Source: Candidatus Latescibacterota bacterium (GTDB lineage: Bacteria > Latescibacterota > UBA2968 > UBA8231). Taken from it: a stretch of DNA of 64,000 nucleotides. Under the pieces are notes generated by a model, which saw only the letters and a program-made list of their open reading frames with translations, searched no databases and was not told the DNA's origin. The stretch spans positions 736,001 to 800,000 of the forward strand of contig CBDETY010000003.1 of assembly GCA_965243025.1 (NCBI GenBank), read 5' to 3'. Positions 3,335 to 8,636 of this stretch are shown here, one piece after another. How positions within the stretch are numbered: the first letter of the stretch is position 1; each line of letters starts with the position of its first letter. Made by a program: the position numbers and the translations under genes.

Positions 3335-4768
3335 TCACTCGATCCAGAAGGAGAACAGGCTGGCCCGGTGCAGGTAGAACTTCAGCTGCACCGGCTTGTC
3401 GAACACGAGGTCGTGGGAAGTCTTCCAGGCGACCCGGGCGCGGGTCGAGTCGCCGGTGAACGGGGGCGGAGGCTCGGCAGGCACCCAGAAACCGGGGATC
3501 GGCCGCCCCGACTCGGCGTCGAGGATCTCGGTGTAGATCTCCCCCCAGCGGGCATCGGCGTTGATGAAGACCTCTTCCCCCTTCAGCTCGAACGGTCTGG
3601 TGGTGACGACGCCGTTGTCGCTCCCCTCGATCGACACGAAGCCGTCCGGCCGCAGCCTGGCCAGCGACAGGGCTCCGGTGTCCTCGAAGTGGCGGGGGTC
3701 GACCCCCATGCGGTGCAGCTCGTCCAGCTTGCCGCGGCGCTCGTAGTTCTCCCTGGAGGTGCCCCACCTGAGGCCGTTGTAGTAGCACCAGATCTCGCCG
3801 TCGTCGCGGACCACCGGCTGCCCGGCCATCAGCAGCTGCCCGGTATCGTAGGTCTCGCCGTCGTAGGGCTCGACTCCGAGGAAGACGGCGCGGTCGGCGA
3901 CCCGCTCCCAGTTGTAGAGATCGCGGGAGACGCTGAGCTCCACCTGGTTGATGCGGTCGAAGTTGGTCTCCGGCGGGGGGTTGGCGCCGAACGGGTTGAA
4001 CAGCACCGGGAAGCCGACGTAGAGCCCCTGGTAGGGGAACACGGCCATGTTGTAGACCTCGGCGATGTAGTCTTCGCCGTCGACCGCGGCCGGGGTCAGG
4101 AAGGCGGGGTCCTCGATGATCCTGCGCACCCGCTGGCGGCAGTTCTCGTGGTCGGTCTCGTCGGAGTGGAAGATCAGCTTCGGCTCGCTGAACTCCCGGA
4201 AATCGGCGTCGCCCGTCGACAGGAAGACCGAGCGCCCCCATTCGGTCCCCTGCTTGACCATCGCCAGGTACTGGCGGCTGTAGGGATCCCAGGTGAACTG
4301 CGACTCGTCGCTGCTGGGGATCGCCGGGGCGCCGGTCGGGGTCCACTGGAAGCCGTCCGGGGACAGCGCCGGCTGCCGGCCCCAGGTCGCCAGCAGACCC
4401 TTGTAGCGCCGCTTGGGGTCCGGGTCGGCGTCGTCCCGCAGGAGGTGGTAGGCCCGTTCCCCGCGGTCGCCGTCCGGGTCGGCGGCGAGGTTGTTCCGCT
4501 TCGATCCCTCCCACTCGTACAGGCCGAGGTCTGGCAGGTCCCAGTGTTGCCCGTCCGCGGAGGTCGCGTAGCGGAGGGGTCCGCCGAAGTACCACCACTC
4601 CCATACCTGTTTGTCGGGATTCCACTGCGGGGAGTTGCGGCTCTGCACTCCGCCCGGGATCAGGGGGCCGCACTTCCTGGGCTGATGCAGGCGCCGGGTA
4701 ATGCGCTCGCTCGAATGGATGGCCCCGTCGTCGAGAAAGAGCTGGTGGAACCGCTTGGGCTCGAGCAT
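3335..4768 (-). CDS. Hypothetical protein, probable five-bladed beta-propeller glycoside hydrolase-like (GH32/GH43-like)
   Basis: 'QLFLDD' start, repeated 'SxDGxxW' Asp-box-like motifs, 'LARLRPDGFVS', C-terminal beta-sandwich 'LFSFW'; GAGGAG RBS. Confidence 0.7.
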   Translation of the reverse strand: MLEPKRFHQLFLDDGAIHSSERITRRLHQPRKCGPLIPGGVQSRNSPQWNPDKQVWEWWYFGGPLRYATSADGQHWDLPDLGLYEWEGSKRNNLAADPDGDRGERAYHLLRDDADPDPKRRYKGLLATWGRQPALSPDGFQWTPTGAPAIPSSDESQFTWDPYSRQYLAMVKQGTEWGRSVFLSTGDADFREFSEPKLIFHSDETDHENCRQRVRRIIEDPAFLTPAAVDGEDYIAEVYNMAVFPYQGLYVGFPVLFNPFGANPPPETNFDRINQVELSVSRDLYNWERVADRAVFLGVEPYDGETYDTGQLLMAGQPVVRDDGEIWCYYNGLRWGTSRENYERRGKLDELHRMGVDPRHFEDTGALSLARLRPDGFVSIEGSDNGVVTTRPFELKGEEVFINADARWGEIYTEILDAESGRPIPGFWVPAEPPPPFTGDSTRARVAWKTSHDLVFDKPVQLKFYLHRASLFSFWIE

Positions 4769-4998
4769 GTGATTCTCCTCAATGGATGCGGCGGCGGTCC
4801 GGTTTACGGGCGGTCTGCAGGGAGCGCCAGAATATGTGGGTCGGCTGGCAGGAGGTCATCTCGAAGCGATACCGAAAATTCTGGTACCGAGGGAACGAGC
4901 GGGGGTCAGGATGGTCGGGCTTTCTCCGACGATTGTTCGCGCGACGGGAGCTCGTCGGAGATACAAGGGAACCCCCGGGCCCTCGCGGGGGCGGCCTC

Positions 4999-5436
4999 TC
5001 AAGGCGGCTTCGAACCCGTGCCTCCCTCCGGCGATACGCAGCCCTCCGCCCTGGCAAGGGCTTCGAGCCGTTCGGCGATGCCGGCGGCCAGACCTCCCGG
5101 TTTGACCCCGACGACCGACAGGTCGCCGCGGCCCGCGGCCGCGGTCAGGCGGGGGAGGTCCGCCACCCGGAAGAGCCGCGTCCCCGAGCGCCGCCGGCGC
5201 CCCAGCTCCTTCCAGGTTCCGGCCGCAAGGTCCGGAGAGGCGAACAGGTAGGCGAGCTTGGGGACCCGGCGCACCGCGGACAGACCCATGACCGTGTCCC
5301 CGGACTGGCAGCCGATCCCAATGAGATTGGAAACAGCCGCGGCAGCCGCCTGGTCGAGAAATTCGGCCCCACCGCTGGAGGAACCACTTGCTTCCGCGGG
5401 CTTATCGGCCTCCTGATTTCGCTTTGACGACCCCAC
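4999..5436 (-). CDS. L7Ae/YlxQ-like RNA-binding protein (orphan)
   Basis: 'NLIGIGCQSGDTVMGLSAV...YLFASPDLA...LTAAAGRGDLSVVGVKPGGLAAGI' aligns by eye with the YlxQ/L7Ae pattern; CATAAT -10 box 11 nt upstream of GTG. Confidence 0.6.
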   Translation of the reverse strand: MGSSKRNQEADKPAEASGSSSGGAEFLDQAAAAAVSNLIGIGCQSGDTVMGLSAVRRVPKLAYLFASPDLAAGTWKELGRRRRSGTRLFRVADLPRLTAAAGRGDLSVVGVKPGGLAAGIAERLEALARAEGCVSPEGGTGSKPP

Positions 5437-5639
5437 GGCCCGAACCTATTATGCCGGCAGGCGGACCGCCAGGGGTCGCCGGGAGGGATCCGGGTACTCG
5501 TTTCCGGATGGCGAGGCCGCATGAAACGCTGCCTTCCACCCCCGGGGGGATTACCTGGTTCCCGGGGGTCAACAGGCGTGAGAGCCGTGGGTGCGAGCAC
5601 GCGGTGGGTGCGATTGCAACGCATCCAAGGGGATGGCGG

Positions 5640-5775
5640 TCCCCACTCCGAACTGCAGGCAGATCCCGCCCCCCACTGAAGGGGGACCCCTCCTGAAGGC
5701 TGTTGCCCCGCAACCCGTTCACCCGGGATAACCTTTCGCCACTTACAGCACCTCCGCTATCAAAAGGTGTCTTTC
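5640..5775 (+). promoter_or_regulatory. Putative structured 5' leader of ankyrin gene with RBS-sequestering hairpin
   Basis: Hairpins CCCCC-ACTGAA-GGGGG (5670-5685) and GTTGC-CCC-GCAAC (5702-5714); GCACCT (5748-5753) pairs with AGGTGT (5765-5770), the likely SD. Confidence 0.45.
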
Positions 5776-7464
5776 ATGTCCGCTGATCTTCCCAGCCGTC
5801 CCAGTCTGTCGAGCCTGCGAAGGGAGGCGAAATCCCTTCTCGAAGAGGTCCGCCGAAACCAGCCCGGGGCGCTGGCCCTGGTCCGGGAACACCATCCGGA
5901 CCCGGAGGATTTCGCCAGCGACCGGGACGCCCTGCTGGTGGTCGCCGGGAAGTACGGGTATCCAGGCTGGAGGGAGTTGCAGCGGACCTTCGAGGAGGAG
6001 GCAGGGGCCGGTGGGACCCTCGAGGAACGGGCAGACCTGTTCGCCGAGCTCGCCTGCCTGTCCTACCGCGGCGACGACCACGTCAGCCGCCGCGAGCGCG
6101 CCGCCCGAATGCTGGCCGAAACTCCCGGAATCTCCACGGCGAGCCCCTGGGCCGCCGCGGCTTCCTTCGATGTCGAGGCCCTGGGGCAGCTGACACGGGA
6201 TGCCGAAAGCGCCGCGGCCCCCGGCGGGCCCCGCGACTGGCCGCCGCTCCTCTACCTCTGCTACAGCCGGGTGCCGGAGGAAAAGCCCCGGCGCGACGCC
6301 GTGGCCGCCGCGGAGCTGCTGCTGGCAGCCGGCGCCACCGGCGACACCAGCGTCGGGCCGGAGGAGCGGGGCGGCTGGGGCTGGTCGGCCCTGACCGGGG
6401 TCCTGGGGGAAGGGGAGCACGGCCTGCTGCAGCAGCCGCCCCACCCGCGGGCCCGGGAACTCGCGGGGATCCTGCTCGACGCCGGGGCCGACCCGAACGA
6501 CTCCCAGGGGCTCTACAACACGATGTTCACCCCGGACAATAACTGGCTGGAGCTGCTCCTGGCGCGCGGGCTGGACGCCGGCGCGGTGGTCTATCCCGGA
6601 CACGAGCCGCCCCTGAGGACCCTCGACTACCAGCTGTCCCAGGCGGTCAGGAGGGGACTCTCCGAACGGGTGGCCCTGCTGCTGGAGCGCGGCGCCGACG
6701 CGGCCGCCCCCGACCTCTACAACGGCCGCTCGAACTACGAGAACGCCGTTCTCGGGGGCTTTCCGGAGATCGCCGAAATGCTGGCCGGTCACGGCGTCGA
6801 GGTCGTCGAGCTGTCCCTGGAGGACCGCTTCACCGCGGCGGCGATGAGCGGCGACGAAAGCAGGGCGAGGCAGCTGTTCGCAGAAGCTCCCGCCATGATC
6901 GAGAACCCGGAGCTGCTCCTGGAAGCGGCGGCCAATGCCGCGGCGACGCGCCTGCTCCTCGACCTCGGCGCCGACCCCGACGCCCCCAACGAGAACGGCC
7001 GCGTCCCCCTGCACTGGGCGGCATGGGAGAACTGCGGCGAGGTCGTCCGCCTGCTGCTGGCCCGCGGAGCGAGCTGCGAGATCCGGGAAAGGGACCACGA
7101 CGCCACCCCGGTCGGTTTCGCCAACCACGCCGGCCACTTCGAGCTTCGCGACCTGCTGCTCGATCACAGCAGGGACGTGTTCGACCTCGCTGCCTGGGGC
7201 AGGGTGGAGCAGCTGCGCGAGGTGCTGAAATCGGACCCGGCCCTGGCGAATGCCCGCCTGGCCGGGGGGCACACCCCGGTTCACGGGGTGGCGGCAGGTC
7301 CTGAAGGGGAACAGGTCCTCGACCTGCTGCTCGCCCACGGGGCCGACATCGACGCCCCCGCAGCCGACGGGGCGACCCCGCTCTCCGCGGCAGTCGAACG
7401 CGGCGACGAGGAGCTGGCGGCCCTTCTGAAAGCGCGCGGAGCCCGGGAAACCGGGGGCGGCTAG
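5776..7464 (+). CDS. Ankyrin-repeat protein with N-terminal 'LPxRPSL..L...AK.LL...YG..W' helical domain
   Basis: Many ankyrin repeats (LLDAGADPN, LLDLGADPDAPNENGRVPLHWAA, GADIDAPAADGATPLSAAV). Confidence 0.9.
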   Translation: MSADLPSRPSLSSLRREAKSLLEEVRRNQPGALALVREHHPDPEDFASDRDALLVVAGKYGYPGWRELQRTFEEEAGAGGTLEERADLFAELACLSYRGDDHVSRRERAARMLAETPGISTASPWAAAASFDVEALGQLTRDAESAAAPGGPRDWPPLLYLCYSRVPEEKPRRDAVAAAELLLAAGATGDTSVGPEERGGWGWSALTGVLGEGEHGLLQQPPHPRARELAGILLDAGADPNDSQGLYNTMFTPDNNWLELLLARGLDAGAVVYPGHEPPLRTLDYQLSQAVRRGLSERVALLLERGADAAAPDLYNGRSNYENAVLGGFPEIAEMLAGHGVEVVELSLEDRFTAAAMSGDESRARQLFAEAPAMIENPELLLEAAANAAATRLLLDLGADPDAPNENGRVPLHWAAWENCGEVVRLLLARGASCEIRERDHDATPVGFANHAGHFELRDLLLDHSRDVFDLAAWGRVEQLREVLKSDPALANARLAGGHTPVHGVAAGPEGEQVLDLLLAHGADIDAPAADGATPLSAAVERGDEELAALLKARGARETGGG

Positions 7465-7760: not shown

Positions 7761-8636
7761 ATGGCAAAACGCGACCTGAACTTCGATCCCGAAGAGGGGA
7801 TCGACTTCATGAACATCGACGAGACCGACTACGGCGCGATGACCCTGGGGGAGAAGATGCGCCGCCTCGAAGTCGAGGGGTACGTCGTCCTTCCCGGCGT
7901 CCTCGACCCCGACCACATGGACCGCATCAAGGAGGAGATGGCGGACGCGCCGATGGGGACCAAGGACTACAGCGACTGCCAGACCTACCACCGCGAGCCG
8001 CAGTGGTACAGCCCGGCGCTGGCCGAGGTGATCGCCAACCCGCCGGTGGTCGAGTTCCTCGAGGCCCTGTGCGGCGAGGAGATCGTCTTCACCCGCGGGC
8101 TGTTCACGCGCACCCTGTCCGGGTCTCCCCCGATCTCGCTGCACACCGACGGGCAGCCGTTCGGCTCCTCGATCTTCGGGTACGAGGGCAGCTCGCCGAA
8201 GCTGCTGCGGGTGCTCTTCTACCTCGACGACCTCACCCCGGAGCGCGCCCCCCTGCGGGTGCTGCCGCGCTCCCACCTCTCCTTTCACGCCGACGCCAAC
8301 CCGTACGTGCGCTACAAGTCGCACCCGGGGGAGGTGACCATCTGCGCGAAGGCGGGGACCGCGGTCGTTTTCCCGGTCAACATCTTTCACGGCACCCACC
8401 CCAACATGTCCGACTCCTTGCGCACCCTGGTGCAGCTCGGGTACCGCCCGGCATGGGCAGGCCCGATTCAGCCGATGGAGGAGTGGGACCCCGAGCTCGT
8501 CGCCGCGGCCCCGGCGGTTGCCCGGCGCTTCCTGCAGAGCCCCAACACCTCGGGGGTCGACTGGGAGCAGCCGCACAAGCCGGTGGGGATGAAGTCCGAC
8601 GCGCCGGCGATCGCCCCGGAGCGGTGGGAACAGTGA
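7761..8636 (+). CDS. PhyH family dioxygenase
   Basis: 'LEVEGYVVLPGVL', LHTD HxD, 'VLPRSH', distal FHG; GGAGA RBS before ATG 7761. Confidence 0.88.
   Translation: MAKRDLNFDPEEGIDFMNIDETDYGAMTLGEKMRRLEVEGYVVLPGVLDPDHMDRIKEEMADAPMGTKDYSDCQTYHREPQWYSPALAEVIANPPVVEFLEALCGEEIVFTRGLFTRTLSGSPPISLHTDGQPFGSSIFGYEGSSPKLLRVLFYLDDLTPERAPLRVLPRSHLSFHADANPYVRYKSHPGEVTICAKAGTAVVFPVNIFHGTHPNMSDSLRTLVQLGYRPAWAGPIQPMEEWDPELVAAAPAVARRFLQSPNTSGVDWEQPHKPVGMKSDAPAIAPERWEQ

Follow-up and report, generated by a model that had tools for sequence, protein, structure and literature searches.

An ankyrin-repeat gene with a widespread N-terminal domain

The 64,000-nucleotide (nt) stretch of DNA analyzed here (the window; positions 736,001 to 800,000 of contig CBDETY010000003.1 from a Candidatus Latescibacterota bacterium) carries a gene for an ankyrin-repeat protein whose first 78 residues form a distinct domain (the N-domain) and whose leader contains several potential hairpins (Table 1). 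A reading made from the sequence alone had proposed that the leader is a structured RNA that buries the Shine-Dalgarno (SD) sequence and is bound by the N-domain encoded just downstream, the two forming a portable regulatory module. We conclude that a family of structured leader RNAs tied to the N-domain is probably real, and that this RNA has probably been lost from the window gene, whose leader is an ordinary one.

Ankyrin repeats are the only Pfam content of the window protein (Ank_2, 78.1 bits against a cut-off of 27.3, E 7.5e-22; Ank, 65.7 bits; Ank_4, 62.5 bits), and residues 1 to 78 match no Pfam or NCBIfam model. A HMMER search of 1.84 billion cluster representatives with these residues nevertheless retrieved 681 representatives at E ≤ 0.001, with lengths of 63 to 813 amino acids (aa), which confirms that the protein begins with a non-ankyrin domain. 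In most of the 150 representatives listed from these 681, the match begins within the first 25 residues. The fusions to ankyrin and glyoxalase that the earlier reading had named also were recovered: among 146 N-domain proteins, the Pfam partners are ankyrin (28), Glyoxalase_8 (3), the ClpX zinc finger (2), beta-lactamase (1), and FliM (1), whereas most lack a partner family, and the N-domain itself falls under none. Within the phylum, the N-domain is present in 77 of 168 genomes, with up to 18 copies per genome.

An AlphaFold2 model of the N-domain, computed from an alignment of 55 sequences, predicts four helices with a predicted local distance difference test score of 84.8. No match was found by sequence among PDB entries or by Foldseek at E ≤ 0.001, the best VIA-align Z score was 4.1, and a search of the ESM Atlas returned unnamed clusters only. 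Therefore, the fold offers no hint of RNA binding. The mean net charge of the family is +3.1, and positions 15, 16, 19, 23, and 58 are each occupied by lysine or arginine in at least 84% of sequences; the net charge of the window copy is −1. The family profile, built on the same number of sequences, includes 14 near-invariant residues (L5, P6, P9, L14, A18, L21, A32, P41, A52, Q53, A57, R58, G61, and W65), of which the window protein keeps 12. The exceptions are a leucine in place of Q53 (glutamine in 54 of the 55 sequences) and a glycine in place of R58 (arginine in 50 of the 55).

Table 1. Positions of features at the window locus and order of the elements of the family RNA (MFE, minimum free energy; ORF, open reading frame).
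Feature	Position	Strand	Remarks
Sigma-70-like promoter, TTGACG-17-TATTAT	5424–5452	+	sole promoter-like site in 4700–6100; 0.1 expected from shuffles
Small hairpin GACC/GGTC, loop GCCAGG	5464–5477	+	11 nt past the −10 box; possible P0 vestige
Non-conserved part of leader	5491–5775	+	no significant blastn alignment with same-genus ortholog; no Rfam match
Hairpin CCCCC-ACTGAA-GGGGG	5670–5685	+	read from sequence; in MFE fold; region folds no better than shuffles
Hairpin GTTGC-CCC-GCAAC	5702–5714	+	read from sequence; in MFE fold; region folds no better than shuffles
6-bp hairpin GCACCT (5748–5753)/AGGTGT (5765–5770) over SD AAGGTG (5764–5769)	5748–5770	+	−6.0 kcal/mol, z +0.29
Ankyrin-repeat protein gene, 562 aa	5776–7464	+	from ORF listing; ATG 5776, stop 7462–7464
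N-terminal four-helix domain, residues 1–78	5776–6009	+	family profile 131 bits, E 3e-37
Remainder of the 562-aa protein	6010–7464	+	ankyrin repeats, residues 354–560 (6835–7455)
Family RNA, hairpin P0	RNA 5′ end		loop ends in AGG
Family RNA, strand GUCCGCG (5′ strand of P1)	after P0		pairs with P3 loop
Family RNA, hairpin P2	after GUCCGCG		preceded by AAGG
Family RNA, CCUnn strand	after P2		pairs with P0 loop, forming pseudoknot PK2
Family RNA, linker of 12–39 nt	between CCUnn and anti-SD strands		
Family RNA, anti-SD strand CCUUCUUUC	after linker		pyrimidine strand, pairs with SD
Family RNA, hairpin P3	after anti-SD strand		loop GCGGAC pairs with GUCCGCG, forming pseudoknot P1
Family RNA, SD GAAAGGAG	5–7 nt before start codon		paired to anti-SD strand, forming helix P4

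A leader RNA shared by N-domain genes

Among the 130-nt regions upstream of 30 N-domain genes (one per genome), 16, from many genera, contain a common long conserved block that starts just after the −10 box. A covariance model with four nested helices (R1) was built from these 16 aligned leaders, and it gives 198 matches in 61 of 151 genomes of the phylum, with up to 16 copies per genome. The window's own genome holds a copy at 99 bits in front of another N-domain gene, located outside the window (G000:C3:4097157-4097290). A conserved, covarying leader RNA precedes most N-domain genes, and its conserved fold hides the ribosome-binding site.

The family RNA is an element of the 5′ untranslated region (UTR), with a median distance of 126 nt from P0 to the start codon, and comprises four helices and two pseudoknots. 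The letters GUCCGCGGnAAGG and GCGGAC at its junctions are near-invariant. Within the P3 loop, 2 to 6 nt precede the P1 strand and mostly 2 nt follow it. P4 ends 5 to 7 nt before the start codon in all 99 aligned members, where the start codon is ATG in 74, GTG in 16, and TTG in six. Among the 99 upstream regions there are 87 sites at which a −10-like TANNNT ends 6 to 11 nt before P0, and it is for this reason that the RNA is taken to begin at the 5′ end of the transcript. When sequences are folded singly, P0, P2, and the SD-burying P3/P4 hairpin are recovered.

Covariation was counted on this 99-sequence alignment with a structure of 36 pairs. Standard pairs occupy 90.6% of the cells, compared with 36 to 54% when the 3′ partners are slid by 1 to 3 columns. 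Changes on both sides are found in 24 of the 36 pairs (15.0 ± 1.5 in shuffles) and in 276 cells (88 ± 13 in shuffles), and none of the five covariation measures was reached by any of 500 shuffles, a test whose outcome is inflated by related sequences. Two-sided changes affect 4 of 4 pairs in P0, 4 of 5 in PK2, 2 of 4 in P2, 4 of 6 in P3, and 9 of 10 in P4, where the commonest pair at one position is U-G (56 of 99 sequences). PK2 is absent from the model, yet is 79.6% paired, versus 69.1 ± 1.3% in shuffles (0 of 500). In P1, four of the seven pairs never vary, and one sequence carries a compensatory change from U-A to C-G. The idea that homologs of residues 1 to 78 share a conserved, SD-occluding upstream structure, whatever the C-terminal partner, is thus borne out.

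The near-invariant GUCCGCGG in the 5′ strand of P1 includes the palindrome CCGCGG. This palindrome could let two RNA molecules pair or an alternative fold form, which might be why P1 lacks covariation. It also would suit a different reading of the block, namely that it is a DNA element such as an operator, a recombination site, or a mobile cassette, as would the fact that the block travels with one protein segment. However, compensatory changes preserve pairing in five helices, two of them long-range. The block also is found on the coding strand past the −10 box and takes in the SD, and its copies have diverged, unlike the near-identical copies of mobile repeats. That the block acts as DNA is extremely improbable.

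The leader RNA is not confined to this phylum. A pattern describing only the RNA was run over 185,579 species genomes and found at least 115 loci, most of them in Acidobacteriota when phyla were assigned by reading organism names. Others are in Planctomycetota, Gemmatimonadota, Chloroflexota, Armatimonadota, Myxococcota, Eremiobacterota, Eiseniibacteriota, an alphaproteobacterium, and, among Actinomycetota, Amycolatopsis, Actinomadura, Nocardiopsis, Mycobacterium, Solirubrobacterales, and Acidimicrobiia. R1 confirms 79 of the 80 fetched pattern loci, and the sole miss is a chance match in Lachnospiraceae. Rfam 15 contains no family that matches the element at E ≤ 1 in 32 member loci (12 + 20), and a published description of the RNA was found neither by full-text literature search nor by looking up terms in two surveys from the Breaker lab (PMC11109978 and PMC8632094), whose supplements could hold one.

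The association between the RNA and the N-domain is close in both directions, as judged in the phylum from the best 150 of the 198 R1 matches and from the top 150 N-domain matches. An N-domain is encoded downstream of 141 of these 150 RNA matches (94%). For 85, a listed N-domain match is no more than 40 nt away; another 11 lie 78 to 1843 nt upstream of such a match (eight in genus g12, one with an upstream ORF of 28 codons, and two more). Of the remaining 54, 45 encode an N-domain within 600 nt, 38 of these in the frame of the motif's start codon. Even among the nine without an N-domain, six still start with an LPxxP-like segment (MSxxLP, or LL in one). Conversely, 132 of the 150 N-domain matches have a solid RNA match upstream. 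A listed RNA match occurs within 3 kb upstream of 96; when 260 nt upstream of the other 54 were fetched, 36 scored at least 38 bits, four scored 11 to 28 bits, and 14 gave no match. Three of these 14 are g12 genes with the RNA approximately 1 kb upstream, and one is at a contig end.

The same association holds in other phyla, where 76 of 80 pattern loci encode an N-domain within 450 nt and all six RNA matches in five whole genomes adjoin N-domain genes. In an acidobacterial family of 61 genomes, the RNA is present in 14 and the N-domain in 15, the 14 all being among the 15, and 17 of 18 RNA matches adjoin an N-domain gene. The six N-domain-like genes without the RNA in this family all belong to one subtype that lacks the N-terminal segment. 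These genes, in genomes G170, G177, G178, G188, G199, and G224, encode proteins of 219 to 260 aa that match the N-domain profile from position 29 onward and lack the LPxRPSL start, and none has the family RNA upstream.

The proteins that follow the RNA are diverse. Of 83 motif-led ORFs, the 51 with at least 150 aa were scanned with Pfam; nine of them are close orthologs from one genus. The matches were to ankyrin (16), FliG_C (8), FliM (6), and Sigma54_activat (4), as well as to MgtE_N, a methyltransferase, a bifunctional nuclease domain, and Clp_N.

Two unusual arrangements were observed. In genus g12 (eight orthologous loci, among them L041:342-1806), the RNA is followed by a 336-aa gene that lacks the N-domain and has a weak SnoaL_2 match just under the Pfam cut-off, and a stand-alone N-domain protein of 98 aa is encoded approximately 1 kb downstream of the RNA, apparently in the same operon. 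At L039:1277-1510 (genome G164), the SD of the RNA is followed by a TTG-started upstream ORF of approximately 28 codons whose stop codon TGA shares bases with the ATG of the N-domain gene (TGATG), an overlap that suggests translational coupling.

The leader of the window gene

The ankyrin gene is preceded by a promoter-like site in which TTTGAC, GAACCTA, and the downstream CGCCAG are invariant across an alignment with four orthologs from two genera. From its position, the transcript likely starts near nucleotide 5459, which would give a leader of approximately 316 nt. All of the pairing elements described in the sequence-only reading (the three hairpins at 5670–5685, 5702–5714, and 5748–5770, along with GCTGT at 5699–5703 and ACAGC at 5745–5749) are present, and the hairpins occur in the MFE fold. 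However, the proposed competition between GCTGT/ACAGC pairing and the SD hairpin finds no counterpart in either the MFE or the centroid fold. The SD hairpin includes one G-U pair and an 11-nt loop and ends 5 nt before the ATG.

The stability of the leader is that of shuffled sequence. The 161 nt from 5640 to 5800 have an MFE of −39.9 kcal/mol, compared with −39.3 ± 3.5 kcal/mol for dinucleotide shuffles (z −0.18), and 82 of 200 shuffles are as stable. The region of the SD hairpin (5736–5795) is matched in stability by 112 of 200 shuffles, the entire putative 5′ UTR (5459–5800) gives z −0.14, and a further fold of the leader gives z −0.28. The window hairpins, including the one over the SD, are at chance level for GC-rich sequence.

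Conservation of the leader likewise is lacking. In a blastn comparison with the 84%-identical ortholog from the same genus, positions 5045 to 5490 align at 78% and the coding sequence also aligns, whereas 5491 to 5775 yields nothing significant. A seven-way alignment of ortholog leaders has little in common except the SD and start codon. When close relatives of the leader were sought, genomes gave one ortholog and metagenomes gave only distant ankyrin proteins with 28 to 30% identity; relatives with 85 to 91% identity were found as protein sequences only. Rfam had no match in the whole window at gathering score, so the leader, like the member loci, falls in no Rfam family; at E ≤ 1, the sole match in 5000–6500 is a chance asR3 hit within coding sequence.

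The window leader is not a member of the N-domain leader RNA family. With filters off, R1 scores 6.3 bits on 5660–5778, versus 24 to 128 bits for the 99 aligned copies (95 of them at 46 bits or more), and the leader of the same-genus ortholog likewise scores 6.3 bits. At default filters and E ≤ 10, R1 matches nowhere in the window, and nhmmer with the family profile found nothing in the window at E ≤ 100. GUCCGCG, GCGGAC, and the P2 hairpin preceded by AAGG, each present in 98 or 99 of the 99 members, are absent from 5453–5775. The leader ending given in the sequence-only reading, CCTCCGCT.CAA.AAGGTGT, occurs at none of 257 fetched loci and, as written, does not match the window either. The portable leader-plus-domain module proposed in that reading is therefore upheld by the counts for the family but not for this copy, with its 6.3 bits and chance-level hairpins.

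It is very unlikely that the 135 nt at 5640–5775 act as a structured switch in which the SD hairpin competes with another pairing and to which the gene's own N-domain binds. The pairings do exist, the family as a whole has an SD-occluding leader, and R1 aligns the SD hairpin to the position of family helix P4. Yet this alignment is part of the same 6.3-bit overall match, and the strand differs from that of the family (Table 1). Moreover, the leader folds no better than shuffles and is not conserved in the congeneric ortholog, the competing pairing is missing from the predicted folds, and Q53 and R58, which rank among the most conserved polar residues of the domain, are not kept in this copy. 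Annotation of the window leader as a regulatory RNA is not warranted.

The small hairpin at 5464–5477 may be a vestige of family helix P0. It matches model positions 14 to 27 locally without significance (−0.5 bits, E 1.2), and its placement agrees with the spacing from the −10 box to P0 seen in the family. We also considered that the window leader might be the family RNA with an insertion in its linker; this is retained only as a weak suggestion, as the sole match in its favor is the insignificant P0-like one near the promoter and nhmmer finds nothing.

Orthologs of the ankyrin gene indicate how the present arrangement may have arisen. In two other genera, orthologs with 51 to 52% identical proteins carry the RNA at 80 and 96 bits, and in the window's genome the RNA is kept by one of three N-domain genes. 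Five orthologs in genus g18 and one other have neither the N-domain nor the RNA. The g18 proteins start with MSxDPP and then resume at window residue 76 to 84, so that g18 appears to have lost the RNA and the N-domain together, in a pattern resembling an in-frame deletion in which the first residues (MSxDxP) were spared. The ancestral gene presumably had the promoter, RNA, N-domain, and ankyrin part, and the window's genus would have lost the RNA while the promoter and N-domain stayed. In another genome (G103, L009:732-1514), the ORF of a DDE_3 transposase (E 2e-24) ends exactly at the point where the match of a congeneric ortholog begins, at residue 6, and replaces the start and leader of that ortholog. 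We also asked whether Q53 and R58 disappear along with the RNA; they do so in the window clade, but not in other genes without the motif, and hence joint loss is no general rule.

Other features of the surroundings are listed here for completeness. A divergent ORF of 145 aa (4999–5436, − strand), which has no match in Pfam or NCBIfam, overlaps the promoter-like site of the ankyrin gene with its 5′ end, and the DNA at 5045–5490, which spans most of this ORF, is the segment that is 78% identical in the same-genus genome. The downstream neighbor (7761–8636, + strand) encodes a PhyH-family dioxygenase (E 3e-17) and the upstream neighbor (3335–4768, − strand) a 477-aa protein with no family match; nothing connects either to the ankyrin gene. 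A scan of the window with ARAGORN found no tRNA or tmRNA.

Possible roles and relation to known systems

We infer that the family RNA would serve as a cis-acting translational off-switch. It would fold at the 5′ end of the transcript, P4 would pair the SD with the anti-SD strand, and an effector would stabilize or open the fold. One candidate effector is the N-domain itself. Because the RNA is linked almost exclusively to the N-domain, whatever the partner, N-domain proteins may exert feedback on the leader, a proposal that we hold only tentatively. In a more far-reaching form, which we find somewhat doubtful, a self-recognizing portable cassette present in at least 10 phyla would consist of the promoter, the knotted 5′ UTR, and a domain of 70 residues able to bind this UTR. 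If this were true, dozens of unrelated tagged proteins, including ankyrin repeats, FliG/FliM paralogs, sigma-54 activators, and glyoxalase and beta-lactamase folds, would be under one common translational feedback loop or would belong to one small ribonucleoprotein.

A second candidate is a small molecule or ion. The family RNA might be a riboswitch because its invariant core and pseudoknots resemble those of riboswitches, with the N-domain linked to that signal, for example as its sensor or target at the protein level, and not bound to the RNA. A compact, doubly pseudoknotted fold, with GUCCGCGGnAAGG and GCGGAC near-invariant across many phyla and the SD inside the fold, is consistent with this, as are the persistence of intact RNA copies in a genome without a detectable N-domain (G065) and the g12 loci, at which the RNA precedes a non-N-domain gene that heads an operon. 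On the other hand, the association follows one small domain regardless of what is fused to it (ankyrin, FliG, FliM, sigma-54 activators, glyoxalase, or beta-lactamase) and has no metabolic logic, 94% of the RNA matches listed in the phylum have the N-domain downstream, and the gene contexts seen yield no ligand candidate. On balance, a riboswitch is about as probable as feedback by N-domain proteins, and less likely than not.

Alternatively, the 5′ UTR RNA and the N-terminal peptide together could form a signal for targeting, localization, or stability, as in co-translational delivery or mRNA localization. The RNA sits at the extreme 5′ end and adjoins the first N-domain codons, even decayed copies retain the first residues MSxxLPxxP, and the partners include flagellar switch paralogs. 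These observations are outweighed by the covarying P4 helix, which pairs the SD itself and thereby points to control of initiation, and by the prediction that the N-domain is a folded four-helix unit and not a signal peptide. As nothing in the data bears on localization, we regard this possibility as improbable.

Returning to a translational switch tied to the N-domain, several observations weigh against this reading. Every step in it comes from computational comparison. With regard to the structure, P1 is nearly invariant and so rests on conservation, 80 of the 99 alignment rows come from a search pattern in which the P1 letters are fixed, and fitting the alignment to P0, P2, P3, and P4 biases the counts toward these helices. 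Single-sequence folds of true members beat shuffles only modestly (z +0.10 to −2.39, with pseudoknots unscored). Furthermore, the P3/P4 hairpin is stable by itself, and the model leaves release of the SD unexplained. The case for the N-domain as the obligate effector is somewhat weakened by genome G065, which is 88% complete and contains two intact RNA copies (93 and 90 bits) and no N-domain at E ≤ 1. In addition, Q53 is retained in all seven, and R58 in six of the seven, otherwise unexplained genes without the motif outside the window clade, so that joint decay is not seen, and the RNA core is much more conserved across phyla than the N-domain (approximately 40% identical). Finally, descent of the window leader from the family RNA is inferred from the orthologs, as no sequence similarity is left. 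In G065 (L086, L319), one RNA copy leads a FliG-like gene that retains only MSKQLPSNANL of the N-domain; downstream of the other, the sequence is AT-rich and has no long ORF.

Provided that it is real, the family RNA is a structured 5′ UTR element of wide distribution without an Rfam model, found in Latescibacterota, Acidobacteriota, Planctomycetota, and Gemmatimonadota, among others. It also occurs in Actinomycetota, including cultured Amycolatopsis and Actinomadura, and would be an orphan regulatory RNA amenable to direct study in actinomycetes and acidobacteria that can be grown. The association with genes is unusual in that the RNA follows a small protein domain and not a pathway, and it offers a first functional handle on an uncharacterized domain found in hundreds of protein clusters. 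The regulatory RNA and protein module would be one that is gained and lost together, with the window lineage having kept the domain and lost the RNA and g18 having lost both.

A compact pseudoknotted fold, near-invariant junction letters, and an SD within the fold are typical traits of translational riboswitches, as in SAM-II, preQ1-II, and NAD+-II. The family RNA is likewise comparable to the SAM-II, preQ1-II, NAD+-II/pnuC, and guanidine-III riboswitches in its location in the 5′ UTR, its pseudoknots, its near-invariant junctions, and the ribosome-binding site in its fold. Like the nadA and pnuC motifs, as these are reported, it occurs almost exclusively with one type of gene. Unlike those riboswitches, it is larger (approximately 126 nt), has two pseudoknots, has no Rfam 15 match across the 32 loci, and is linked to the N-domain on unrelated partners and not to a pathway.

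Autogenous operators, such as those for L10, S15, and thrS and the leader pseudoknot of T4 gene 32, also place a structured leader directly before one type of protein, and the family RNA resembles them further in occluding the SD and in the near one-to-one link between RNA and protein families. In autogenous operators, the regulating protein is known to bind RNA, and the leader imitates the target that it normally binds. By contrast, the N-domain has no known fold relative by the structural searches above, is linked to the RNA by gene association, and is a module on many proteins, with as many as 16 RNA copies in a genome.

The pairing of a U-rich strand with the SD, several G-U pairs included, is reminiscent of the fourU and ROSE RNA thermometers. 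Those thermometers are simple hairpins, whereas the conserved 5′ domain of the family RNA and its two pseudoknots with near-invariant letters are features that a plain melting device does not need.

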